A stretch of 50,823 nt of DNA from an uncultured bacterium. Its GTDB lineage: Bacteria; Patescibacteriota; Saccharimonadia; Saccharimonadales; 2-12-FULL-41-12. This document shows positions 23,861-37,866 of the stretch, piece by piece (within the stretch, counting starts at the first letter, position 1; every line of letters starts with the position of its first letter). Location of the stretch: contig CAWIAU010000001.1 in the NCBI GenBank assembly GCA_963834265.1, positions 535,523-586,345 on the forward strand, in the 5' to 3' direction. The position numbers were made by a program, and so were the translations under genes. The notes below the pieces were generated by a model, which was given only the letters and a program-made list of their open reading frames with translations, ran no database searches and was not told the DNA's origin.

Positions 23861-24069
23861 CCGTTTTCAAACGGAAAACCACCTGCCGATTCCGGATTAC
23901 CGTCAGCTGTCATAAATCCATAATATAGTATCAGTCAATATTTAATAAACCAGGCTTGTAACCTGAAAGACTAACATGTCTATCTGCTAGAAATCCGCGA
24001 TAACGAGTTTGTGCATCTTCATCATGTTGGCAAAGGCATTAGGACGCTTCATGAGTTCGTCCATATTTT
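23861..24069 (+). repeat. ~210-bp direct repeat, copy 1
   Basis: Near-identical to 27094-27303, with a handful of substitutions and one 1-bp indel. Confidence 0.95.
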
Positions 24070-24132
24070 TTAAAACAACTTGACAGTCCAACTCGTACAA
24101 GCTTTATTTCTAATCGAAAAGACGGGAAAGGA

Positions 24133-26306
24133 TTAGGGGCAATATATACGTGTTGGGCTGGTTGAAGAAACTGTGGCACGAGCTGCAGCGGTTGATTCCA
24201 CCGGGCCGGCATTGGGGTCAATTCCATGAAGAGCTAACCAGTCTTCGTCAGAATATTTTGCAAATTGGCGGGCATAGACAATTCGAGCATAGAGCTCGCA
24301 GAATGCAAAAGAATCACCCCCGTATATACATGCATTATATTCATCTAGTGCTTCGCCCATGGCCGCTTCATGCGCACCCCAAAACTGGTTTCTCCACGAA
24401 TCAGGATCATTATCTGGCTGGCCAATACCCCCTAGAAATGCCATAGCATAGTACCCACCGATATCACCATCTAAGTCATCAGCCCCGTAGTTCGGCTGGC
24501 CCGTTGCAGGCGCCGCATCCTCGTAGCCCATTAAGCTTCCAACTCCTCTAGACAATGCACTACCGGTACTTGTTGGGAGTGGTCCGGGTAGTCCAGACTC
24601 TTGAGCAGGCATTGTTCCTGGCAGAGTGGGCTCGGGAGTCGAAAATTTGGATGTTGTAGTATTTTGAGTTGGTATATTATATGGACTCCAACCTCGCATA
24701 TGCGTGTCAATATTGGCAATTTCATTACCTTGGTAGCTATCTAAAGCATTCGATTGAAACATCACAAAACTGCCGTCGGGCGACATAATAGCGCGCGAAC
24801 TTGTTCCTGATGTAGCTGTCAATGAATACTCTTTACGCGACTGTATAATTGTTTTTGAGGGATAGTACATGTTTGTTCCTATCCATTGCATGACATCACG
24901 CTTATTATTTAGATCCGTACAACCGTCATTACCGCACAAGGTGGATGCATCAGACTCATAGGCAATACTAAACGATCCATCGGTTCTTTGTAGCCCACTG
25001 ATCGACGGAGCATAACTGCCTTTATTGCCCCCTTTGCTAACCCATGTGGTTATACCGCTTGAAAAGTCGCGCACATAGACATCCGGAAAGTTATTATTAT
25101 CGCCAAATGCTGGATTATTACCCCAAGATTCAAAAGTAATATAGCGGCCATTTTCGGAAATATCCGGAGCCTGATTAGAGCCACCCAGCTGAGCGCCATT
25201 ATTACCTACAGATACAAGGATATAGGGCATTATTCGTTGTATCCCTGACATACACGCTTGCTTGGCCGTTAGTATCAGCACGGCAATAACTTTGCGGGCG
25301 AAGTAAAAGCTACATAACGGCCGTTACGACTTATCGAAGCGCCGTATCCCTCGCCAACATGGGTCACGGTCTTTTTTTGCTGAACGTCATATATATAGAC
25401 ATCACTTTTCGAATTTGCTGTTCCGTTTGAACTACTAATGCCGTAGTACGTTGTATAGGCAACTTTCGCCCCGTTTGCTGAAACTGATGGTTGAGTTGCA
25501 GCTGCCTTGAGGTTTATACCGCCAACAGGTCCTATTTGCTGACCAGCACTGTTAGTTATTCGATCAAGGGTGTTTTTATAAAGATTACGAACTAATATAT
25601 CATCCACCCCATTTGTGTCATTGCTGACTAAATTTGTAGACCTTGTTTCAAATGCCACCAGCAGACCCGATCTGTCTAATTTGGGGTTAAAGCTTATACC
25701 GTTTGCCCCTCCACCAGTCAAAGTGGAAGAAGCTTTCATGTAGCCTCTATCTGTAAGCCCCACGAACACGTCGGTCATTCCATTATGATCGTTGTGCACG
25801 AGAGTTGACGCCGATGAATGGACGGCCATTACCGTTCCACCGTAGTTAACATCTCCAGGAATGATGTCATCTTTGACTTCTCCCGCAGAGCGCCACGTAT
25901 ATGAAGTTACAGGGCTGTATACAGTGTAGTAAGGATTGCCATTTGGGCATGTTCCGAATTGTTCGCAGTTTTCATCATATTCTACAGCGAATGCTCTAAC
26001 TTGAAATGTATGTGTGCCGTTTGGAATGTTCGAATAACCTTTGCCCGTTTGACATATCTCCCATGCAAAATTATCAAGTCTGCAGTCAAATTGAGCCCCC
26101 GATTGAGTAGAAGTAAACTCAAATGAGGCGCGAGGAACAGCCGTTACCTTATCTGCTCCACCAGGACTGCGTGTAATTTGAGGGGCGGATAGAGCTGCGT
26201 AAACCTTCGAGCTGAATACAACAGGCATAACGGAGCTTGTCGTAGCAAACATCATAGCAGCCGAAATAAGTAACATTTTGCGGGTATTTAAGAAAATAGT
26301 TTTCAA
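24133..26306 (-). CDS. Secreted protein with Ig-like domain and TolB/PD40-type beta-propeller repeats (frameshifted near 25.2-25.3 kb)
   Basis: Signal peptide, FEFTS...FDCRLD Ig-like motif, repeats PS.S.NGRYVAF.S..TNLV..DTNG..DV.VRD. Split over ORFs 25275-26306 and 24133-25281. Confidence 0.75.
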
Positions 26307-26353
26307 CGTTCAACTCCTTTAATAATTTACCTACCGAAACGGTTACAAATATT

Positions 26354-26382
26354 GTTATATTCTTCTTTTTTCAATTTGTCAA
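26354..26382 (-). promoter_or_regulatory. Sigma70-type promoter for the secreted propeller gene
   Basis: TTGACA-17 nt-TATAAC on the minus strand. Confidence 0.6.
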
Positions 26383-26455
26383 TAACAAATAACAGCAATT
26401 TATTTGTTGAAAGTTAACATATGCGGCATCAGGCGGACTTGATGAATTGATTATC

Positions 26456-27146
26456 TTAAGGTCTTGATGATTGATCCTGCTGTACCTTTCCGGCAACTGC
26501 CAGCACCAAACGTCTCAGATCTATAAGACGCATGTCTCTATCCTCTTTTAGCGGATAAGAAAGAAATAGGTTTTGCTTGAAAGGATCAAAGCCTGCGAGC
26601 ATCAAAAATTCTCTAGCGGTTTTGATAGCTTCAGGTGACCTATCGGATACAAGAGTGCTGATTCCGCTTCTGTCCATGCCGCTTCCAGAAAAAATGCCAG
26701 ACCAAAATGCATTTATAGCGTCACTATTGCCTGATACAGCTTCGATGACTGCATCTTTATCTAAAAGAAATATAGATAAGTTACGGCGAAGTACATATAG
26801 CGTCTGATATAGCTTAAATTCCACAGGGTTTAGTTCCCGAAGTTTTGTTGTGAAATCATTTGGATGAGCATCGTATGCAGCAAATCGTTCCGCAAGATCT
26901 GTTACAAACTGGCTAGTGGCGTCATCCGTAGACTGCCTAGTGCCCGGGTGAGTAGGAATTATATCTGCTGCCAGCTTAACGGCATAAATATACGGTATTT
27001 CCAAGAATCTGCTTTGATGACCCCCAACCACAAACCCCTGCATGAAATGCTTCAAGTTCAACAGTAGGATTTGGAAGAGAGTCAACAGGATCCCCGTTTT
27101 CAAACGGAAAACCACCTGCCGATTCCGGATTACCGTCAGCTGTCAT
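26456..27146 (-). CDS. Hypothetical protein (probable frameshift near 27.04 kb)
   Basis: N-terminus MTADGNPESAGGFPFENGD... joins the 26456-27115 frame if one base is removed around GCAGGGG. Confidence 0.55.
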
Positions 27147-27303
27147 AAATCCATAATATAGTATCAGTCAATATTTAATAAACCAGGCTTGTAACCTGAA
27201 AGACTAACAAGTCTATCTGCTTAAAAATCCGCGATAACGAGCTTGTGCATCTTCATCATGTTGGCAAAGGCATTAGGACGCTTCATGAGTTCTTCCATGT
27301 TTT
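27094..27303 (+). repeat. ~210-bp direct repeat, copy 2
   Basis: Matches 23861-24069. Covers the VOC gene 3' end, the intergenic region and the first 18 codons of the next gene. Confidence 0.95.
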
Positions 27304-27683
27304 CAGGCACGATCTGCCAGCTCAAGCCGTATTTGTCCTTGCACCAACCGCATTGTTCGGACTGCGGTACAGCCGACAAGTTTTTCCCAATAATAATCAA
27401 TTTCTTCCTGGTCTTTGCATGGAACCGAAAAAGATACGGCTTCGTTGAACTTGAATTCCGGCCCGGCGTTAATAGCTACGAAGCGGTTGCCGCTAAGTTC
27501 AAAGTCTACAGTCAGTACTTTGCCAGCCAGCTCTTTCTGAAAATCAGCCAGCCCTTCTTCGGTACTATTCGGATAGTTAACCGTTGATATAATCTTACTA
27601 TCGGGAAATACAGAAACATAAAAATCAACCGCCTCCTTCGCATTGCCGTCAAACCATAAATTAGGGGTAAGATCTTTTGCCAT
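27221..27683 (-). CDS. VOC family (PhnB/3-demethylubiquinone-9 3-methyltransferase-like) protein, one frameshift
   Basis: TPNLWFDG, FYVSVF, INAGP.FKFNEAVSF, QEEIDYYWEKL. Continues after an extra base near 27378 as QCGWCKDKYGLSWQIVP...KLVIADF*. Confidence 0.85.
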
Positions 27684-27748
27684 ACTATTCTCCTGTGTTA
27701 TTTGGGTTTCTTTTTTAATTATACAGCAGGACATGCCTCTGATGTTAT

Positions 27749-28000
27749 TTAACGGTGGATGCAGCCGGCCCAGCAGCATGGGCGGCGCTTACCTTCCTGC
27801 AGCTCCTTTACTGTACGCTCAATGTGGTTTTTTCTCGTTTCCGGTTTTTTGGTTGTGACTGTCCAGCAAATCCACTCGTTGCGCGCCAGCGGCGTAATGT
27901 CTTCCCAGGCTTTTAGTGCTTCAGGCGCAGAAGCAAGAGCTTTCCGTAAATCCGATGGCATTTTATGCGCTGTCCCCTTGGCGAGGATTTTTGTCTTCAT
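27749..28000 (-). CDS. YdeI/OmpD-associated family protein
   Basis: MPSDLRKAL...W..ITPLARNEWICW...KKPETR..R; C-terminal RRPCCWAGC.HR. Confidence 0.85.
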   Translation of the reverse strand: MKTKILAKGTAHKMPSDLRKALASAPEALKAWEDITPLARNEWICWTVTTKKPETRKNHIERTVKELQEGKRRPCCWAGCIHR

Positions 28001-28052
28001 ATAGTAATCATATCAAAACAAAGTTATTATGCTTCTGTATAGTGCTTCAACC

Positions 28053-28139
28053 TGGCTCGCAGTAACAGACACACTGCGAACCGAAAGTATGAACTATGAC
28101 GAGAATAAATTACGGATCATTAAAGAGATTCTAGCGTAA
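28053..28139 (+). other. Distal att junction plus orphan 3' segment of the recombinase gene (WLAVTDTLRTESMNYDENKLRIIKEILA*)
   Basis: TGGCTC core in the same W-L codon phase as at the recombinase/tRNA junction. CGAACCGA motif shared with the tRNA arm. Confidence 0.7.
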
Positions 28140-28155
28140 ACACCCTATATACTAG

Positions 28156-28236
28156 CTAACCGTTGATTATTGGCAGCACAACAGTAATTAGCTCTTCATC
28201 AGCTTGTTCTTGTTTTGGTGTTCGCTTCTTTGCCAT
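28156..28236 (-). CDS. Small ORF MAKKRTPKQEQADEELITVVLPIING
   Basis: 26 aa, with TATAAT 8 nt upstream of the ATG, like other apparently leaderless genes here. Confidence 0.35.
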   Translation of the reverse strand: MAKKRTPKQEQADEELITVVLPIING

Positions 28237-28388
28237 ATACATTTATTATACTGTACCGTAGAACAACTAAAAAAACACAAAAGCACTTAATTGACGTATA
28301 GCATAACACCTGTTCATTAAATTATTGCTTAGGAGATTAAGCGACTTTATACAAATTTTTTTCTCAGATTTTAACTACTCAACGCCAT

Positions 28389-28997
28389 TTACTGCGTTAT
28401 GTCAGGAAGCTCTTTAAGCCGTTTGCCATTATATTGCCAATAATTCGCCCCTTGATAAGCCCCACTAGTATTTAGCTGTCCCTTATCATCGAATATTTTA
28501 TATGTCAGTGGTGATAGCTTCCAAGTCTGGCCACCATATTCAACTTCTCTTTCATCGCTCACAGTGGCTTTAATTGAGTCATCCGATATAAAACTAATCT
28601 CATCTCCCTTGCTTAAACCTTTCTTGTAAAAGCTAAACAAAGCACTTTGCTTTCTAGTAGTTGCAACTTTATCAAACTCTTTTTCTTTATCAATTTTATC
28701 TGGATAAATAACTTTGCCATCAAATGACAATAAAAGCTGACGTACTAAATCTTGATCCAGTGCAAATAGCTCACTGCTACCTACTTGATGTTTGCCAAAA
28801 ATTTCATGTAGCAAGTTTTCTTTATCATCATAGTCTTCAAGCTCAATCGCAAAGAATCGTTTTAGGCCAGCTACATTAAAATATCCATTTGCCTCAAGAA
28901 ACCGCATACGCTCTGGGTAGTTATTAGTTCCGGTTTTTCCAATCTTCACTAAACCCGATACGGCGGTTGTCATTATGTAGATAATCCCTTTTGCCAT
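28389..28997 (-). CDS. GIY-YIG/T5orf172-family nuclease with RAMA-like C-terminal domain
   Basis: GIIYIMT...LVKIGKT...ER...E.LLH..F.....ELF. C-terminal FSF...G...GD.ISF...LS.LT...GANYWQY. AAGGA upstream of ATG 28997. Confidence 0.8.
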   Translation of the reverse strand: MAKGIIYIMTTAVSGLVKIGKTGTNNYPERMRFLEANGYFNVAGLKRFFAIELEDYDDKENLLHEIFGKHQVGSSELFALDQDLVRQLLLSFDGKVIYPDKIDKEKEFDKVATTRKQSALFSFYKKGLSKGDEISFISDDSIKATVSDEREVEYGGQTWKLSPLTYKIFDDKGQLNTSGAYQGANYWQYNGKRLKELPDITQ

Positions 28998-29008
28998 CTG
29001 TATATCCT

Positions 29009-31306
29009 TTATATCTTGAGTGTTTGCCACTTACTTGAATCATTTGCGTCATATTCATCGCCAACAAAGATTTTCCACGTACCAAGTTCGCCAGGAATTA
29101 CTATGCCACCATCGTAGCCATTGTTTTCCGCCAACCACTTCTTAAGCCCCTCAGCACGACCACCAGCACTATCAGCCGTTTCACCACTCTTAGTATCAAT
29201 TATCCATACTTTGTCTTTAGTCTTAATAAACCAGTCTGGATAAAATAGCTTTTCAATATTGCCATTCATATATGGAACAGCAAAATACAAACTGCCGTGG
29301 TCGCCGTTTTTATGCCACCACTCTACGTTTTCATTATCATCAATGAATCGCAAAAACTTCTCTTCATTCTTTTTACCCTTGTAGTCTTTACCGATATAGA
29401 AATGGTCATATACATTACGCTTAACATCTAACTCTTCAGTCAAATCTGTAAACTTGTCGATAGCCGCAGGGACTTCAATTGTTGCAACTGTACGCTCATG
29501 GTAAGCTTCAGCTTTTTTGGCAATCTCTTTGGTTCGTATTGGACGATATGCCAAAAGTGCTTTACGAATAACTTCAATAAGGGTGTTGTTTGTGCCATTC
29601 TCGGCGTTCAAGAAATCTTGCATTATCACTCTGTAATAACCAGCTCGATCCAAGCCAGTATTATTGCCAAACCACACGTTCAAAGCAGACTTTAGCGGCC
29701 CCCACGAACGTGCAGGAGCATACTTTGTTCGTTCATCTGTTTGTTCACTAACTATCTTAAAGCAATAGAGGTTATACAGACGCTCAATATCGTGTAGAGA
29801 TACTTTTTGAGATTGACTGCTTCCTTCTGCCTTTAGTTCGGTTACAAAGTTGTCATAATCATCAATCTCAACACCAGTGATGATGTCGCTTGTAATTTCC
29901 GGCTTTAGGTTTAAGCCTTTGGCTTCAATCTTTGCTACACGCTCACGAATATCAAACGAATCTTGTATATCAAAGTATTCATTAGCTACTTTGCCAAAGG
30001 CACGTTGGAATGAATCACCTAAGTCATTGTAGTCAGTACGTACAGATGTAACGGTTTCAAGTGTTAGCGGCACAATCTCTGGCTTACGTACGGATTCATA
30101 TATAGTAGGACGGTTTTCGCCGATACCATTCTTGTCATAAGTCGCAATCACTTCATTACGCTTATAGTTGGTATACAGGTAGCCTATGTTCAAAGCTGGA
30201 ATCGTAAAGTGCTTTGCATGTGGCATACGCAAGATACGGCCAACTGTCTGTATAGCAAACGTAGCATTTTTAATCTCACGAACATTACAAGAACGCCAGC
30301 ACGTGGACAATCCCAACCAGTCGCAGCGGCTTGCTTAAACAGCAGGAATGATACAGGTGAATCATCTTGCACTATGGTAGTCAGATTGATTTTGTCTTTA
30401 TCTAGCCATACCGCTATCTCATCGTCTGTAACGCCTTTTGACTTCAAAAACGCCACCACAATATCACGCTTAGTAGTGTTGGTTTCTTTGGTTGCTTTGT
30501 CGTCGTTAGGCAGCTGTATTAGCACTAGTGGATTTATGTTCTCGCCAATATCTTTATAGTGCCGTAGTAGCTCTGAACGCTTTCGCCATGCTAGTTCTAG
30601 CAGTATTTCATCTTGATTTGTTTCTGTGCCAGCAAACCGTACTAAGTCTTCTTCAGTCTGGAATATAATCTTCTCTTTTAGTAGACCGCTATCAATCACG
30701 TCTTCACGTGGTACCTCAACCAGTCATAGCACCTGTATTCTGAGGCGTAGCAGAAACACCCATGATGATACGTGGCTTAATGACGTTTTGGATCAGGTCG
30801 CTTGCCAGCACCGTATTAGCCGACAAATGTTCTTCATCGATAATCAGCACTATCTCACGGCCTTTGGCGTGAGTGGCACTCATGTACGTATCGAAACTTA
30901 TAGTCGTATCACCGTCAGTACGTAACTTACGGTTTTCGGCCGAACTGCTTACTAGCTTTTCCCAGTTGATAAAGAATACTGCATTACGTGGTAGTAAACC
31001 ATCACGCAAGTCATTCATGTCTAGTAACTTGTTTTCGCTCGCACCATCATAGTAGCTAAACAGCTTGTCTTTACTCTGTTGAGCTAACTGGCCTTTAGTG
31101 ATCCACACATACGCCACATCAGCATTAGTGAAGCGTGGTTCACCTGTCATATCACGCAGGAATTGAGCAATCATAGTAGTCTTACCACTACCAGTAGGAG
31201 CTTTTAGAATCAGGTTTGCCCCACGTGTTTCACTTTTCCATAACATCAAGAAGTTATCTTTTAGCTTTGATACGGCACTTTCTTGAAAAGGTTTCAGAAT
31301 AATCAT
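29009..31306 (-). CDS. res: Type III restriction enzyme Res subunit (two frameshifts as sequenced)
   Basis: APTGSGKT, IIDEEH, SATP, GWDCPRA, QTVGRILR and C-terminal FYPDW...IDTK nuclease motif, spread over three ORFs. Confidence 0.88.
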
Positions 31307-33018
31307 TTGGCAATCTCCTTATACACTTCAATCAGCGGCTCAGGAATATCCTCCACACTAATTCTCTCACTGGCGTATTCTGTACCAGCATTCTTGCCCC
31401 ATCCAAATACATACAGCTTTACAGGCTTGTCTTGAGCGTTTAGCTTGTCTATATATTCATCAATCTTTGTCTTGTCTTCACGGTAGTAAATTGCCGTAAA
31501 TTGAGCTGTATTTTCATATGTTTGCCAGTGGCTTGTTTGTTCTACTAGCTCAAAAGAGTTTTCTTTTAGTGCAATCATCGCACCCATCTCTTTAGTGATT
31601 TCTAGCTTGTCGTCATCCGTAAGCCTGCTTAGACCTTGAACCTCAACAAAGTTTGTTTTGTAATAGCGTAAATTGGCAGGAATACCAGCGGTCTTCTTGA
31701 ATCCAGCTACAACCTTACTGATCCGCTCATATGTTACATTTTCGGCGATTCCGTTTTCATTATTCGTGCCTAATATAAATTGTCGCTTACCACCGTCTTC
31801 AGCGTTTAGCTGTAGTACAGCGTGTCCAGCCGTGCCACTACCCGCAAAGAAGTCTAGAACAATCGCATGTTTATTAGGTACAAGCTCTAGTAGTTGTTTT
31901 ATCAAGCTAGTAGGCTTTGGAAAATCAAAAGCAGATCCACCCATAATGGCAACTATTTCTTTTTTGGCATTATCATTAGAGAAGACGTTATCGGTCAGTG
32001 CAAGTGAACTCAGCTTATTTTCTCTAGCTACATACTCGATACTGTATGTTCCACCAGTCTTAGCTATCTTCGCTTTAGCATAGGTTTTTGTGTAAATACG
32101 GCTACCGTTCTTGCCCTTCTTCACAACTACAAATCCATTATCAACACCAAACTTAAACCTATCTAGGCTCCACCTCCACACCCAATCTATACTTTTATGC
32201 TCGCCTTGATGACGCTCTTCCACTTCTCCACGTCACCACCCGGTACGAACACTTGTCCGTCATGCTCAATCTCAAAGTCCATTGCTGGATTCCAAAATAG
32301 AGAATCATAGTCAAGAGTCTGATTCAACTGATAGCCACCACGCTCTTCGTAATATTCATCTTTGAAAGGGTATTTGTCGTCCCCTATGGATATGCCCTAA
32401 AACTTAGCGTGTTGGTACTTATTCGTGTAAACCAAAACATAGTCATGGTTACTTGCTATCTTTTCGCTGTGCTGCTTACCCGACTTTTTAGCTACCCTTG
32501 GAATGGTAGCTACAAAATTATCTTCTCCAAAAACTACATCGCAAAGCAACTTCAAATGAGCTTGCTCATTATCATCAATACTCATAAATACAATTCCATT
32601 GTCAGACAAAAGACTCTTCAGCTAGACGCAACCGGTTATCCATGAAACTGAACCACTGGCTATGTCTATAAGGATCTTCTTTATCTACGTAGCGGTCATT
32701 ATATATAAAATCTTTATTGCCAGTATTGTATGGCGGATCAATATAAATAACATCTACTTTGCCAGCATGGGTATAGTTCAAAACAGACAATGAGTGGTAA
32801 TTATCCCCCTCTAGTAGTAAGTGAGTTGGCTCATCATCGCCAGCTTTAGCGATAGCCTTATCTTCTACTTCTTGCAGTACAGGTACTTTGGTTTCGCACT
32901 CTGCAACTATATTTTCTTGCTTTGGATTCCACACCAAACCGAACTTTGTATCTTTTTGTAGCTGTCGAACGTAGGCCAATAGCTCCTCTTTTGTATACTC
33001 GTCCAACTTTTTACTCAT
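31303..33018 (-). CDS. mod: Type III R-M adenine methyltransferase Mod (frameshifted as sequenced)
   Basis: KFGLVW, LLEGDNY, YIDPPYNTG, SIDDNE, FDFPKP, VLDFFAGSGT, split over several ORFs. ATGA overlap with res. Confidence 0.88.
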
Positions 33019-33032
33019 GCTATTTGTTTTCC

Positions 33033-33223
33033 TTACTGGCCATTTGATTCCATAAACTTTAGTATGTCTTCTTTTTGTATCGATACAGCTTCCTGGCACC
33101 AATACGTTTCGCCTTTAATGTGCCGTCTTTATCCCAGTTCCTGAGGGTATTTTCATGGACTTTAAGAAGCTCAGAAACCTCTTTAAGCGTTAGATATTCC
33201 GGTAAGTCGTTCTTTTGTATCAT
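33033..33223 (-). CDS. Excisionase/MerR-type HTH DNA-binding protein (not in ORF track)
   Basis: My translation: MIQKNDLPEYLTLKEVSELLKVHENTLRNWDKDGTLKAKRIGARKLYRYKK. One extra A in the homopolymer restores ...EDILKFMESNGQ*. Confidence 0.8.
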
Positions 33224-33271
33224 CTACCAATATCTTATAATAAATACCAATCATATGAAAGTAGATAAGGC

Positions 33272-34156
33272 ATGAAAAACGAATCAGTAAACAGCAATGA
33301 TTATGCTCTCGCTAAAAAGCTAGACTTTACTGCGGCTCGCTTGCTCCATGGTGTATGTGATATGTTAAGACACCTCAAGTTCTTAAATTATGATGAAGAA
33401 TACTATCGCACTATCAAGGACGCAAACCGTGCTTACATACTATTAGTACATGAGCTTGATGCAATCTATTCTCGTAATGAACCCCTTGCAAAACTAAACG
33501 AAGATCCGAATACTCTTGCTGCCTGGAAACGTTTTGATGTTATAGAGGGCAATGAACTTGCTATACATAAATTTGCTCAGAAATTCAGGAATCTATTAGA
33601 CACACAAAATCACTCTATACAGGTAGAGCGTTTAGCAATAATTGCTGGACAAGAAGAAGCTATTCTTACATCTGAACTTGAGAAGCTAATCGAAGAAGCT
33701 GAAATAACAGGCGTTAAAGCTACTCAACACGGACAAAAGAATCTTCAAAGATATATATCCAGCTACAAACTAGAGTACAAAGATGATGGCAGTATCGTTG
33801 TAAACGGCGTTTTATCTCTAAAAAAGACTCAGAGTGGTTCTGCACCTCGCAAGCTTATGGAACAGGCTCTAAAGCATCCCTACGAGTCTTTTAAGCCCGA
33901 ATTAGGTCAGCTAAGTCGTAGCTTTAGTAGCGTACTAAATGATATGGGAATTACCGGAACAATCAGGAAGATATTTTTTCCAGTCGCAAACAAAGACGAA
34001 GTATTATTTCGGCCAATAGTAGACCATTCAAGAGCAGAAAACGAACAGATAAAAATGCTTGATGAACTAGATAAACAGCTCATGGCTCTCGGAGCTGCTA
34101 CTCGTAGCCCATTTGAATACAATGTTTCAGATGAGCCTAGGAAGAAAAGAAGATGA
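33272..34156 (+). CDS. Hypothetical element protein
   Basis: Intact 294-aa ORF divergent from the HTH gene. Family not recognised. Confidence 0.75.
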   Translation: MKNESVNSNDYALAKKLDFTAARLLHGVCDMLRHLKFLNYDEEYYRTIKDANRAYILLVHELDAIYSRNEPLAKLNEDPNTLAAWKRFDVIEGNELAIHKFAQKFRNLLDTQNHSIQVERLAIIAGQEEAILTSELEKLIEEAEITGVKATQHGQKNLQRYISSYKLEYKDDGSIVVNGVLSLKKTQSGSAPRKLMEQALKHPYESFKPELGQLSRSFSSVLNDMGITGTIRKIFFPVANKDEVLFRPIVDHSRAENEQIKMLDELDKQLMALGAATRSPFEYNVSDEPRKKRR

Positions 34157-34216
34157 AGAAGTGGTCCAACTAGCACTTAAAGAAATGCGTGAAGAGTTAC
34201 GAAAAAACAACGAAAA

Positions 34217-34248
34217 CGATACGTAATAATACGTATAATTACGTATCG
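34217..34248. repeat. 32-bp near-perfect palindrome within a ~10-bp-phased ACG array
   Basis: CGATACGTAAT-A-ATACGTAT-A-ATTACGTATCG. Confidence 0.85.
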
Positions 34249-34475
34249 CATACGACTTAGTACGACATAAGACGCAACCGACGATTTAAGGCGGCTTACT
34301 TGCGATACTCGGCTTGTGATGAACAGCAAGCCATTAGAATCAACAGCCAATCCAAGCCGTAAATGACGTGCCTGAATTGACGCTTGAAGTACTGAAGAGC
34401 TAGAACAGCTCGCTAGATTTCTTGACGCTTTAATGGAAGCTGATTTCGTCAATAAGAGCGATGGGATCAGCAGCC

Positions 34476-35600
34476 ATGATTGATACCGTCAAACTAGCTG
34501 TATCCTATGGCAAACGTCCTAACTGGCTCACTAGAGTACAGGCCAACAGTAGCCGCAACGTAACAAGTGGCGTGATTACATATCTTTCATAAACGCTGAC
34601 AAGTCATACAGGCGAATAGGTGTTTACCTGTCCCAACTACTATATGTCGAGACAGCCAGCCACTAAAGACCGTAAGCGAACATACACTCTAAACATTGAG
34701 GTATCTTTACCTAAACTATTTTTCGGCAATAACTTTGACGAACTAACCGATAGTCAATTTTCAGATGTAGTACATGAACTACATAAGCGATTACGCAATG
34801 TATATGGACTACGAATATCTGAATACAAACTAGCACAGTCAGAAGTAGCCAAAATAGACTACTCAAAGAACATTATCTTTACCGACCGAACTCCTGTTTC
34901 AACCATCATAAACGCTGTTTCATTGGCAGGCATATCAAAGACTTATGACGTACAGAAAACTGACTTTAGGAACGGCGGACAAATTTATCATATACACGCC
35001 AACACCGTAGACATTGTGATTTATGACAAAGTAGCAGACCTAAAGCAGTCTAAGGTTTCCGAAAAACGTACTGTCGAAAGATATAACCATTCTCAGATAA
35101 AACTAGTAGAGGAACTGGAGAAATATCCAAACGTAACAATCCCACGCTTTGAAATCCGATTAAACGACAAACGGAAAATACGAAGTGAACTCAAAGCCAT
35201 AAATGCTAACGAAGACTTACGATTTTGTTACGTGTTCAATGCCGATTTTTCTCGGGCTATATTGTTACGTCATTGGAACAAAATATTTGACCAAATACCT
35301 AAAGCGCAAATGGTAGCCGATACACCTACACAGCTACTCGTATCACTCAAGCAAGCAAACCCGAGCATGAAGTTTGCAGAAGCCAGCTCATTGACACTCA
35401 TGACATTACTACGAAATGAAGCACGAGATGAGAGGACTATACGCAATTTAATAGAGAGTCTTTTCAGTGAGTCACAGTACTCACGGCTCAAGAATAACGG
35501 CCGATCCCCACCAACTAAAACACAGCTAAAGAGTCTGCTGCAAATCTCCAAGACCATAAGTGCAATGACTCCTGTAAAGAAAGAGGATTTTATTAAATAA
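34476..35600 (+). CDS. Phage/plasmid replication initiator, gpII/X (Rep_trans-like) family; 5' part frameshifted
   Basis: N-terminal MIDTVKL at 34476, then IEVSLPKL..GNN, AKIDY, IYDK (candidate catalytic Tyr), RFEIRL. Confidence 0.7.
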
Positions 35601-35674
35601 ATTGTGGGACATTGTTAGCTATTGTTAGCAATTCCCACTATAATATAACCATAAGAAAAGAAGGAATTACGACA

Positions 35675-37243
35675 ATGAAAACTACTACAAACACTAACTA
35701 TGAAAACGTAAAAGCATTTCTAATTGCACGGGTATCTGACACCCGACAAACAGACGCTTTACCCGCTCAAGAACTAAGACTAAAAGCACATGCCGAAAGA
35801 CTCAAGCTTAACGGCGAATACTTTGCTTTTGATGAAACAGCCTACAAGGACGACCGCCAAAAATTCAAAGAGATTGTAGATAAAGTCTATGGATGTCCGG
35901 ACTTTTGTATAGTTGTCTTTGACAAGATTGACCGCTTTACAAGAGATTCTTCGTCAGAAGTTGTACAGATTATGAAACGTCTGGTTAAAGAAGGAAAGAT
36001 TGAATTGCATTTTCCATCGGATAATTTGTTTATTCATAAGGACTCACCTGCGTCCGACAAAACACGACTAGGTATGGGAATGGTTTTCGGCGAATACTAC
36101 TCTGCAGCTATTAGCGATAATGTGAAACGCAAGATTGAGCAAAAACTACATGATGGCGAATTTCCAGGTAAAGCACCTGTTGGCTATATGAACGTAGCGG
36201 TAACAAGATGATTTAGGTAAGAGTTCTATCTAAAAATATCGTGCCTGATCCAACACGTAAGCCATACATCGTAAAAGCATTTGAACTACGGCTTGAGGGT
36301 AATTCGTTTCGTACAATTGCCAAAATTCTCAAAGAGGATGGGCTTTAGGTCGAACACTATCAAAACAAGGTGTTGTTTCGTCAGAGCCCAGATTGAAACA
36401 ATGCTCAAGAACCCCTTTTATCACGGAGTAATGAAGTATGACGGTGGCCTACATCCCCATAAGTACGAACCAATCATAACTAAAAAGATTGTTTGATAGT
36501 GTTCAATCAATAAACGAAACACGCAATAATGACCGAAACAAAACACTAACTAAACAAACATACACTTTTCAGGGTGTACTTCAAATGTGCTACATGTGGC
36601 TGTTCGTATTCGTCATATACGAAAAAGGGCAATGTCTATATGCGATGTACGAAGTCAAGGAGGGTGTCGAGTGCAACCAACCACCCACCTCTGAGGCTCA
36701 TATAACCCCACAGGTTATAGAATTACTTGAAAGCTTGCTATTAGTGAACAGGTTGTCAGCAAGCTACTAGGCACCATGAAAGAAAGACATGACAAAGTAC
36801 AGCTGTACTACCAGAACTGCCATTTGTGAATCACGAGACAAGATCAACAGACCTTGAATAGGAAACTAGGTATTCTATACGAGCGACCGTCTTGATGGTC
36901 GTATTACTACCCGAACGACTATGACAAATATGAAAGCAACCTATGAAGCAGACAAGCATAGAAGCAGAAGAAAAGCTTGTTGAACTACACCAATAACGAC
37001 AAATCGTTTGTTGTAACGTGCTGAGTATCTGTTAAAGCTTGCTCAGAATGCAAGTCAGTATATTTGAAAGTTCGCAACCAGGTCAAAAGAACCAAGATTC
37101 TACGAACATTACTTGCGAACTGCAAAATCAATCAAAAAAGGCTGCAACTCAATCTGTTACAGCCTTTCTTGGCACTTAGTGCTGACTCAAAAAGTCAAAA
37201 TTGGCTCCCGGGGTCGGATTCGAACCGACAACCTCGAAGTTAA
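35675..37243 (+). CDS. Large serine recombinase (several frameshifts as sequenced), reading antisense into tRNA-Asn
   Basis: ARVSD..Q, DKIDRFTR, APVGY.N, LKNPFY.G, HKYEPII, zinc ribbon C..CG, coiled coil. Ends ...SQNWLPGSDSNRQPRS*. Confidence 0.88.
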
Positions 37244-37276
37244 CAGCTTCTTGCTCCACCATTGAGCTACCCGGGA
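37202..37276 (-). tRNA. tRNA-Asn(GTT)
   Basis: TCCCGGGTAGCTCAATGGTGGAGCAAGAAGCT-GTT-AACTTCGAGGTTGTCGGTTCGAATCCGACCCCGGGAGCCA: 7-bp acceptor stem, GTTCGA T-loop and encoded CCA. Confidence 0.97.
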
Positions 37277-37341
37277 TTACAGAGTGTGATTATACCTGTT
37301 TACCTCTTCTTTTGTAAACTGTTCTGAACGATGCAGTATGT

Positions 37342-37803
37342 TTAACGATTTTTTAGTTCTATCCGGTTAGCTCTTTCCTGGTCGCGTTTTTTGAGTACTT
37401 CCCTTTTGTCGTGCTTTTTGCGTCCACGGCCTGTACCGAGGCGTAGCTTGATATAACGCCCGCCTATCAGCAGTTCCAGTGGAATAATAGATTGACCTTG
37501 TTGCCTGAGCGCCAGCAACTGGTCAATTTCACGACGTTTCATGAGTAGTTTTCGTGTACGTGTCTGTTGGGATTCATCGAGCGGTATCCCATTCGTGCCA
37601 TTAATGGTGGCATTAAACAACCAGAGTTCATTGTCTTTGGCAGTCACATACGAGCCTTTCAAATGCCCATGCCCCATTCGGAGTGATTTGGTCTCAGCCC
37701 CTGTCAGACTAAGGCCTGCCACGAATTCACTGCCCAGATCGTAGTCGAACCGGGCCCGCTTATTGGTGATTTTTTTAGTCTGTGACTTCGGTTTATTAAC
37801 CAT
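37342..37803 (-). CDS. smpB: SsrA-binding protein
   Basis: NKRARFDY, AGLSLTGAETKSLR, RTRKLL, GRGRKKHDKRE. Confidence 0.95.
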   Translation of the reverse strand: MVNKPKSQTKKITNKRARFDYDLGSEFVAGLSLTGAETKSLRMGHGHLKGSYVTAKDNELWLFNATINGTNGIPLDESQQTRTRKLLMKRREIDQLLALRQQGQSIIPLELLIGGRYIKLRLGTGRGRKKHDKREVLKKRDQERANRIELKNR

Positions 37804-37866
37804 AGCGCTTACAAGTATGGAGTATATTGTGTTATTTGACAATGTATGATATAATAAAGAAGAATA

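Follow-up and report, generated by a model that had tools for sequence, protein, structure and literature searches.

We analysed a 50,823-nucleotide stretch of DNA from an uncultured bacterium of the order Saccharimonadales (contig CAWIAU010000001.1 of assembly GCA_963834265.1), hereafter the window, in which a putative integrative element carrying a large serine recombinase gene abuts the end of a tRNA-Asn gene. The segment is framed by two copies of the hexamer TGGCTC that lie 9,149 bp apart (28053-28058 and 37202-37207; Table 1). The right-hand copy is the reverse complement of the discriminator base and CCA end of tRNA-Asn, and it also supplies the Trp-Leu codons at which the recombinase gene runs, antisense, into the tRNA gene. 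Between the hexamers lie genes for a restriction subunit and a DNA methylase, a small HTH_17 protein, a rolling-circle-type replication initiator (Rep) and the recombinase. The G+C content of this interior is 0.36-0.44 per kb as compared with mostly 0.44-0.49 in the flanks, which consist of host genes, namely members of the OmdA and 3-dmu-9_3-mt families on the left and smpB on the right.

Table 1. Features of the element, its junctions and its immediate surroundings, in window coordinates
Feature	Position	Strand	Remarks
Host-side left arm (B arm) of attL	28028..28052		AGTGC 8-12 nt from the core
attL core TGGCTC, 6 bp, left element boundary	28053..28058	+	related contigs diverge here
P' arm and orphan tail segment, WLAVTDTLRTESMNYDENKLRIIKEILA then stop	28053..28139	+	GAC at +10-12 and CGAACC at +19-24 past the core
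Cargo open reading frame (ORF), 213 aa	28389..29030	-	weak MUG113/T5orf172-like match, E 6.4e-4, 20.7 bits (Pfam cut-off 22.3)
Type III restriction gene res, three pieces	29009-30316, 30190-30699, 30716-31306	-	ResIII, E 1.3e-14
N6/N4 DNA methylase gene mod, three pieces	31303-32223, 32397-32609, 32602-33102	-	Pfam match
Backbone HTH_17 (excisionase/MerR-like) protein, 54 aa	33059..33223	-	E 1.4e-9; in 43 of 58 related loci
Backbone ORF, 294 aa	33272..34156	+	no family match; homologues in 28 of 58 related loci
Backbone rolling-circle-type replication initiator (Phage_CRI/G2P-like)	34461..35600	+	E 6.6e-7; in 42 of 58 related loci
Large serine recombinase gene	35675..37243	+	resolvase domain intact to 36211; final frame crosses the core into the tRNA
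Terminator-like hairpin, 16 pairs and U run	37133..37171	-	31 nt past the tRNA CCA, within recombinase codons KRLQLNLLQPF
P arm of attR	37176..37201	+	the recombinase's own final codons (...SADSKSQN)
attR core TGGCTC	37202..37207	+	recombinase Trp-Leu; antisense of the tRNA G-CCA end
tRNA-Asn(GUU), complete, CCA encoded	37202..37276	-	called by ARAGORN; sole tRNA found in the window
B' arm (tRNA-Asn 3' half)			GGA at +9-11 and CGAACC at +14-19 past the core
Promoter-like site for the tRNA, TTTACA-18-TATAAT	37289..37318	-	11 of 12 positions; consensus match only
smpB	37342-37842		host gene

The plus-strand frame that crosses the right core reads ...LQPFLALSADSKSQN-WL-PGSDSNRQPRS and stops at 37243, with a tRNA-side continuation of ...SQNWLPGSDSNRQPRS before the stop. 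The left core opens a second segment, WL-AVTDTLRTESMNYDENKLRIIKEILA, which runs to a stop ending at 28139 and has no recombinase in front of it. Both junctions and their frames had been placed at 28053 and 37202 by an initial annotation of this DNA made from the letters alone, and translation and the ARAGORN tRNA call bear this out. That annotation had also described the tRNA-derived tail of the recombinase as 12 residues long; the tail exists, although it comprises 11 residues after WL.

The position of the left boundary is indicated by related DNA. In contigs of related elements from three metagenome runs (X1, X2 and X3), homology to the window begins exactly at 28053, with unrelated sequence to the left of it. 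Unoccupied sites are also represented, by loose ends at the tRNA from other organisms with the sequence ...AGTGCTTATGCT-TGGCTC-tRNA. In a genome of the same family (G005) an OmdA homologue (C3:212742-212896) lies 123 nt from the tRNA-Asn gene (C3:213019-213096), which is the arrangement of the window's flanks without the insert. Among 23 tRNA-Asn ends of relatives, 19 have no recombinase end upstream, three are occupied and one is cut by a contig end. These empty sites, which are from other genera, place the boundary nowhere else than had been proposed. The element also departs from tRNA islands of the Islander type in that only 6 bp are repeated at its far end and no tyrosine integrase or recombinase is found by Pfam among its ORFs.

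The recombinase gene belongs to the large serine recombinase (serine integrase) family. Pfam assigns the Resolvase domain (PF00239, E 1.8e-15) to 35675-36208, and further fragments in the window match PF07508 at 23.6 bits (cut-off 21.1) and at 19.6 bits (below it) and PF13408 (Zn_ribbon_recom) at 17 bits, below its cut-off of 25.3 bits. The homologues carry all three Pfam domains, Resolvase, Recombinase and Zn_ribbon_recom, and across 85 of them the nucleophilic serine of the ARVSD motif (Ser22) and the four cysteines C301, C304, C321 and C330 are invariant. We made an AlphaFold model of P0038, a homologous protein in which the recombinase is joined to a long tail (mean predicted local distance difference test score, pLDDT, 79). 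It contains a long helical hairpin at residues 355-434, the coiled coil of this enzyme class. A Foldseek search with the model returned solved serine integrases as best matches, among them complexes of integrases with their attachment (att) sites, phiC31, Bxb1 and LI (E 6.5e-19 to 6e-13). The TM-scores were low (0.2-0.25), which a flexible chain of several domains would lead one to expect. A sequence-only search of the PDB gave no useful match. The folded part of the model extends to about residue 496. Beyond it, pLDDT drops below 50 in residues 499-505, among them W503 and L504, and two short tail helices follow at 506-513 and 519-531 with pLDDT of about 50-67. Since the core falls within this linker, exchange of the residues downstream of it should, on the model, leave the fold undisturbed.

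We then asked how widely this layout occurs. With the N-terminal domain as query against 401 genomes of the order, homologues were found in 92. Among the best 29 loci, 17 have an intact gene whose end is overlapped by a called tRNA (8 Asn and 9 Gly), six end on tRNA-like antisense sequence (contig ends or uncalled tRNAs), three have other tails and three are cut. In all 12 of the wider loci that have a called tRNA, the last TGG of the recombinase starts at the first coordinate of the tRNA. A second scan, restricted to one representative genome per species, yielded 80 loci, nearly all in Candidatus Saccharibacteria/Saccharimonadales with a few in other Patescibacteria. An opposite-strand tRNA covers the end of the gene in 53 of them (Asn 42, Gly 4, Asp 3, Arg 2, His 1 and Gln 1), and an in-frame TGG falls on the tRNA CCA in 52 of these 53, the remaining one being masked by N. 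The residue that follows the Trp tracks the discriminator and acceptor end of the tRNA, giving WL, WC, WR, WG or WY. On a quick tree of 50 proteins the six targets require five changes, with the Gly and Asp targets forming one group each. Intact homologues from the search of the order measure 491-569 aa, and genes in the integrated form are mostly intact at 490-550 aa. A search of viral contigs with P0038 found no relative.

The orphan segment at the left end recurs as well. In integrated copies the same 6-mer is present 5.5-12 kb upstream of the junction with the tRNA, and behind it an in-frame tail of 26-41 residues, similar to that of the window, is encoded; examples are WLTLADALRTASAEYDEHQVQNIQSILQYNALA, WLPLVDTLRMVSTDYDERRVNEIKEILYAV and WLRLVETLRTSSEQYEDYEFDDLAATVRLYEPS..., and, in the Gly clade, WCRIVDAFQTSAISAVDDYKLKHLVEVFGLSSELLL. 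Across 20 aligned tails of the type seen in the window's clade (family a), distal codons such as D16, I23, K24 and L27 keep their residue while the third position varies. The pooled ratio of nonsynonymous to synonymous differences (pN/pS) over codons 11-28 of these 20 sequences is 0.39 in the recombinase frame as compared with 0.84 and 0.99 in the other two frames. A second clade (9 sequences) gives 0.25 as compared with 1.07 and 1.84, and a third (8 sequences) gives 0.38 as compared with 0.84 and 1.20. Synonymous differences in codons 3-10 occur at half the frequency (pS 0.36 as compared with 0.75), which fits an added constraint at the DNA level on the att arm. Given this purifying selection, and a TGG-on-CCA register that is kept from target to target, the tail therefore matters to the free form of the enzyme.

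The tail is also found joined to the recombinase. The best 120 homologous proteins from public genomes and metagenomes, sorted by tail class, comprise 97 with a tRNA-antisense tail, five with a joined family-a tail (P0026, P0030, P0038, P0053 and P0117, with P0038 ending ...STNWLPLVDTLRMISTDYDERRVNEIKEILYAV), five with a TTIEEVIT-type tail, four with a PIQVT-type tail, six with another or short tail and three that have no WL or WC near the end. At the DNA level, the 9,362-nt contig L063 carries Rep, the recombinase with its joined tail, cargo and the backbone ORF, which is the integrated order circularly permuted, and it has no host genes. Two short contigs, L061 and L084, also contain a joined recombinase end. 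The first 125 nt of contig L059 are identical (125/125) to a recombinase end plus core, and the contig then continues across a P' arm and the complete element as far as another core, which is joined to a tRNA-like arm; it may thus represent either a tandem copy or a circle and an integrated form mixed in one sample. The initial annotation had predicted that joining at the core would yield a continuous long-tailed recombinase and that homologues would end in tails of the WLxxxDxxRT type, and these proteins and contigs are of just that kind.

The arms to the right of the two cores differ in a characteristic way. Counted from the base after the core, the inner motif of the Asn clade is GAC at positions 10-12 of the tRNA arm (26 distinct sequences) and GAc at 10-12 of the element arm (29 distinct sequences), and the outer motif is CGAAC at 14-18 of the tRNA arm and CGAAc at 19-23 of the element arm. 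The Gly clade likewise has GAC at 10-12 of both arms, with CTAAC at 14-18 of the tRNA arm and CAAAC at 19-23 of the element arm. In the window itself, CGAACCGA lies at 28077-28084 (nt 19-26 past the core) and again at 37221-37228 (nt 14-21), an offset of 5 bp that the initial annotation had noticed and that holds family-wide. In a blind test, the 52 loci supplied 176 upstream occurrences of the core 6-mer, and these sites were searched with the tRNA-arm 6-mer (positions 14-19) at up to one mismatch. An offset of +5 was obtained at 28 of the 176 sites, as compared with 0-3 sites at each other offset from -6 to +12, and at least one +5 site was present in 25 of the 52 loci, loci with Asp, His and Gly targets included. 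For LI integrase the zinc-ribbon-domain motif is described at 16-24 of attP half-sites and at 11-19 of attB half-sites, and the recombinase domain as binding at identical places in both (Rutherford et al., PMC3783163). By their motifs the right arms obey this attP/attB rule of large serine integrases, with the inner motif fixed and the outer one displaced by 5 bp, in agreement with the zinc-ribbon-domain shift of LI integrase. No clear equivalent of these motifs is seen in the two left arms, in keeping with the initial annotation.

Taken with the junctions, these results make it probable that a 9,149-bp integrative element occupies the terminal six bases of tRNA-Asn in the window, that its serine recombinase gene extends across the element's own attachment site and that the resulting exchange of C-termini serves as a state-dependent control of direction or stability. 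Integration would swap a conserved tail of about 26-40 residues for about 11 residues read antisense to the tRNA, and excision would restore the long tail. The crossover presumably falls inside the 6-bp core, and the tRNA would stay whole because the exchange is confined to its terminal six bases, which the element supplies anew. The element may cycle between the chromosome and a circle that is copied by the Phage_CRI-like rolling-circle-type initiator. On the circle it would encode the long-tailed enzyme, which would recombine P-core-P' with B-core-tRNA; the chromosome would then encode an enzyme with a meaningless tRNA-antisense tail. The long tail itself, hung on a flexible linker after the zinc-ribbon domain, is proposed to modulate the enzyme.

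What the tail might do can be considered by analogy. In phiC31, fusing the recombination directionality factor (RDF) to the integrase at its C-terminal end through a flexible linker is reported to give an excisive synaptic complex on attL, and the extreme C-terminus of that integrase is reported to contact the RDF (bioRxiv 10.1101/2025.05.02.651858). Because the tail is selected as protein and linker-hung from the zinc-ribbon domain, and because of these phiC31 precedents, we favor a role in direction or activity. More tentatively, the tail might be a built-in, state-reporting directionality module that acts in cis like, or against, an RDF, in which case the circle's enzyme would integrate and the chromosomal enzyme would excise or be silent; we regard this specific form as possible and somewhat doubtful. 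A degron is a further idea. The family-a tails end in hydrophobic residues (LVTV, LYAV, EILA), the ends of other clades differ, and a ClpP gene is present. A candidate gene for transfer-messenger RNA (tmRNA; G000:C3:117208-117639) scores 42 bits against an Rfam cut-off of 47 and was missed by ARAGORN at default settings, and the tag guessed from it at a relaxed threshold ends ...LRATV. These observations hint faintly at a degron.

Several points weigh against this overall reading. The joined contigs could be tandem copies instead of circles, and public runs matched at most 0.15 of the sampled words, so excision of this copy was not observed. The strict +5 test succeeds in only the 25 of 52 loci noted above, which is due partly to limited flank and partly to divergence of the motifs. 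Since no clear match between motifs is seen in the left arms (P and B), the crossover is placed no more finely than the 6 bp in common. Most genes of the integrated form are intact, which fits a switch and equally fits a dispensable tail, and the AlphaFold tail is of low confidence, with no docking seen. The compared sequences are related to each other, and the pooled pN/pS values and counts overstate their independence. Lastly, the recombinase gene in the window is frameshifted 18 times, Rep, res and mod are also split, and this copy probably does nothing now.

As to the last point, we consider the chances about even that the window's element is a dead relic in which the genes for recombinase, Rep, res and mod have truly decayed and no movement or switching takes place now. 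The initial annotation had treated the recombinase as one reading frame, which does not hold. Compared with the intact homologues L039 and L040, it has 16 insertion events (20 nt) and two one-base deletions, all within 36205-37092, so that downstream of the intact part (35675-36211) the coding sequence is scattered over all three frames. Rep is broken into 34461-34592 and 34620-35600, of which the N-terminal piece matches separately, while in L063 it is intact (372 aa). Related contigs differ from the window by single-base indels at 30279, 34140, 34337, 34391 and 34393, the first being an additional G behind 30279 in res. In contrast, the recombinase indels are oddly biased for natural decay, with 16 insertions to two deletions, outside homopolymers and crowded into about 890 bp, and the frameshifted part is no more diverged from L039 and L040 (73-74% identity) than the intact part is (71-74%). 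This pattern is possibly a consensus artefact. Because of the bias, the confinement and the lack of extra divergence, we consider an erroneous consensus over a heterogeneous stretch and a true pseudogene equally likely. All long host ORFs of the window, the flanking genes included, are open. Contigs of related elements leave 36142-37092 uncovered. If the 18 indels are real, the copy in the window is predicted to be inactive. An alternative genetic code was rejected as the cause of the breaks, which are frameshifts with no in-frame stops.

A separate feature of the same gene is that its last 177 nt (37031-37207) are 93% identical to L039 and L040, which come from two other genera, as compared with 71-74% over the rest. 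This could reflect a recent exchange of the att-proximal end or the stacking of DNA-level constraints (att arm, terminator).

At the level of the family, a competitor to state-dependent control is that the overlap is a by-product of compaction without any switching. The tail would then be the normal end of the transmissible form and its truncation harmless or merely weakening, as with Mx8 IntX, and the arrangement would persist as attP cannot easily move relative to the gene. We judge this possible, if less than probable. It is in keeping with integrated-form genes that stay intact without the tail, with tRNA-derived tails that vary freely in length and sequence, and with a tail that sits on a low-confidence linker and makes no predicted contact; the authors who described dsiB, a related case taken up below, also list a trivial explanation (PMC3146451). 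Because the integrated-form genes are mostly intact, the tail-less enzyme is maintained. Compaction does not readily account for purifying selection on the tail in three clades or for a TGG-on-CCA register that was kept through at least five changes of target (quick tree, 50 sequences).

The same junction carries a signal on the tRNA strand. For the 92 nt that follow the tRNA the folding energy is -34.2 kcal/mol (z-score -5.16), and 0 of 200 shuffles fold as well. Where the recombinase strand has a C.A mismatch, the tRNA strand has a G.U pair. A strict test for a hairpin plus T run succeeded at 21 of 40 non-redundant junctions; in antisense control windows taken from these genes it succeeded in 8 of 574, and on the sense strand at 5 of 40 junctions. 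The hairpin differs between clades (junctions L109-L188), and many unoccupied tRNA-Asn genes have a hairpin of their own immediately after the tRNA. Because insertion separates the tRNA from its own terminator, a substitute was likely brought by the element, and the last ~25 codons of the recombinase likely carry this replacement, antisense. One can go further and suppose that the overlap serves mainly the tRNA, with the element rebuilding the tRNA end and terminator, convergent tRNA transcription silencing the recombinase and the tail swap being secondary. The strand bias, the strong fold at the window's junction, the G.U pairing and the hairpins at empty sites all agree with this account, which leaves the protein-level conservation of the tail beyond the arm unexplained and which we think rather unlikely.

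It is very improbable that the segment at the left end arose as an ORF by chance, or as the tRNA piece displaced by an island of the tyrosine-integrase type, with the true boundary elsewhere: TGGCTC is not rare in itself (five plus-strand occurrences in the 13.3 kb of 24001-37300), and CGAACC belongs to the tRNA T-arm and could make the segment pass for a degenerate tRNA piece, but only 6 bp are common to both ends, so there is no tRNA-fragment repeat, the element has no tyrosine integrase, homology breaks at 28053 in three runs, the tail, besides its conservation and coding signature, occurs joined to the recombinase, and the +5 offset is specific. Read as a degenerate tRNA 3' half, the segment neither folds nor aligns as one beyond CGAACC.

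Serine integrases were formerly stated not to specify tRNA genes (PMC4383910). The initial annotation knew of no earlier description of such a layout for a tRNA-targeting serine integrase in the candidate phyla radiation (CPR), a novelty claim that proved too strong. The serine recombinase gene dsiB of Dehalococcoides overlaps its att site at the 3' end of ssrA, its product being a CcrB-like enzyme of ssrA-specific genomic islands (McMurdie et al. 2011, PMC3146451). DsiB is a real precedent for the core idea, and a partial one; the Saccharibacteria layout differs in several ways. Shared by both are a large serine recombinase gene that always overlaps att at its 3' end, a target at the 3' end of a tRNA-like gene, a stop codon that lies outside the island (in ssrA or a neighbouring island in the case of DsiB), and tandem accretion of islands and relics beside the target; its authors suggest that the gene is perhaps fully functional only on the circle (PMC3146451). 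DsiB differs in that its target is tmRNA, into whose T-loop the island inserts, that the direct repeat measures 20 bp, that another, small recombinase, DsiA, is proposed as partner, and that the overlapping C-terminal part is reported as divergent, with no conserved tail, whereas here the tail is conserved and under purifying selection (PMC3146451). In the present family the crossover would fall in the last six bases (discriminator plus CCA) of ordinary tRNAs, 6 bp are shared and the hosts are Saccharibacteria. Our literature search, which mostly went without subscription journals, found no account of this layout in Saccharibacteria or of tRNA-tip targeting by serine integrases.

Other integrases resemble the present one in part. 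LI/A118, phiC31, Bxb1 and SPbeta share its domain order, fold, short asymmetric att sites and outer zinc-ribbon motif displaced by 5 bp in attP, and they differ in that direction is set by a separate RDF protein. To our knowledge, attP in these systems lies beside the integrase gene and not within it, and none of them targets a tRNA gene. In mycobacteriophage BPs and its relatives attP reportedly lies inside the repressor gene, and integration, by a tyrosine recombinase, is said to remove a C-terminal degradation tag. BPs is thus alike in having attP within a gene, so that integration changes the C-terminus of a protein; there the gene is that of the repressor and here it is that of the recombinase. 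The SSV1-type integrase gene is split into two large parts and does not lose a short tail, and the target of Mx8 is said to be a tRNA-Asp locus. Enzymes of the SSV1 type also differ in being tyrosine recombinases, of archaeal viruses and plasmids. The integrases of Mx8 and SSV extend across attP, and in the SSV1 type the gene is partitioned by integration into a tRNA gene (PMC4383910). In Mx8 (IntP/IntX) attP likewise lies within the integrase coding sequence and integration gives a new 3' end and a different C-terminus; Mx8 Int is a tyrosine recombinase in which the C-terminal change alters specificity and activity (PMC6070905). With its att core inside the recombinase ORF, the present element would belong with these integrases that span their own attP (Mx8, SSV1 and DsiB type).

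Control of direction is a prized property of serine integrases, and here the C-terminus appears to be wired to the integration state, which offers a testable pair of isoforms. The family is also a large one of serine integrases aimed at the CCA tip of tRNA genes, across six tRNA species, and its junctions amount to a dense overlapping code in which the same bases act as protein, att arm, tRNA end and likely terminator. Saccharibacteria and other Patescibacteria are poor in genetic tools, so that an enzyme of known identity with short attP/attB pairs and a universal target would be of direct use. Were the directionality module real, the family would provide ready-made tRNA-targeted integration tools for Saccharibacteria, although the copy in the window is probably not the one to use.

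Turning to gene content, a recombinase homologue is present in 51 of 58 related loci, with the backbone genes at the frequencies given in Table 1 and a variable cargo. Cargo differs among related elements: a res homologue occurs in 4 of the 58 loci, the mod pieces are matched in 8 to 16 of them, and the 213-aa cargo ORF has a homologue in 0 of the 58. The HTH_17 protein is a candidate regulator or directionality factor.

The left arms gave two candidate readings that we rejected. Placing the crossover by left-arm symmetry (GAC/GCACT) gave centres 1-1.5 bp apart between the Asn and Gly clades and between the B and P arms, and in the hexamer AGTGCT, which the P arm and the B arm have in common, the shift is 12 bp and not 5. 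Beside empty or occupied tRNA-Asn ends, AGTGC at 8-12 nt from the core is often seen in other genera as well (L192, L216 and a loose end of run X1, 37216), and other relatives have unrelated sequence at that position. A 36-codon ORF at 28029-28139 has its ATG in the flanking host DNA and continues into the orphan tail (MLLYSASTWLAVTD...); it probably has no meaning, though it would allow separate synthesis of the tail peptide in the integrated state.

Tails that are not derived from a called tRNA form a mixed group. Non-tRNA tails are found in L046 (15114), L048 (15352), L075/L076 (11501) and L092 (10409) and in proteins P0005, P0012, P0022 and P0039. Arms of the TTIEEVITxIK type have attP-type spacing and also occur as orphans in L050 and L041, and the PIQVT(E)-type arm has a spacing nearer the attB type; the former may belong to a second element lineage and the latter to a secondary target site. 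The recombinases of L045, L049 and L050 end on a tRNA-like arm (TGGCTCCGGGGAAAGGATTCGAACC...) that ARAGORN did not call and that may be a truncated or unusual tRNA gene. Two distant homologues with 36-37% identity, L181 on a Kitasatospora contig and L187 on a contig binned as Gammaproteobacteria, are not labelled Patescibacteria, and the L181 recombinase ends in a non-tRNA tail (...NWRALVSKFRTECRAEIL...).

Finally, four loci have arrays of relic sites upstream of the present left junction (L039 5040-6091, L041 5370-7642, L047 5255-7032 and L052 1242-2535). Each relic site consists of a host-like arm and TGGCTC followed either by a decayed P'-like arm or by 12 nt of tRNA end. These arrays suggest repeated insertion and decay at one tRNA, much like the ssrA islands of Dehalococcoides.

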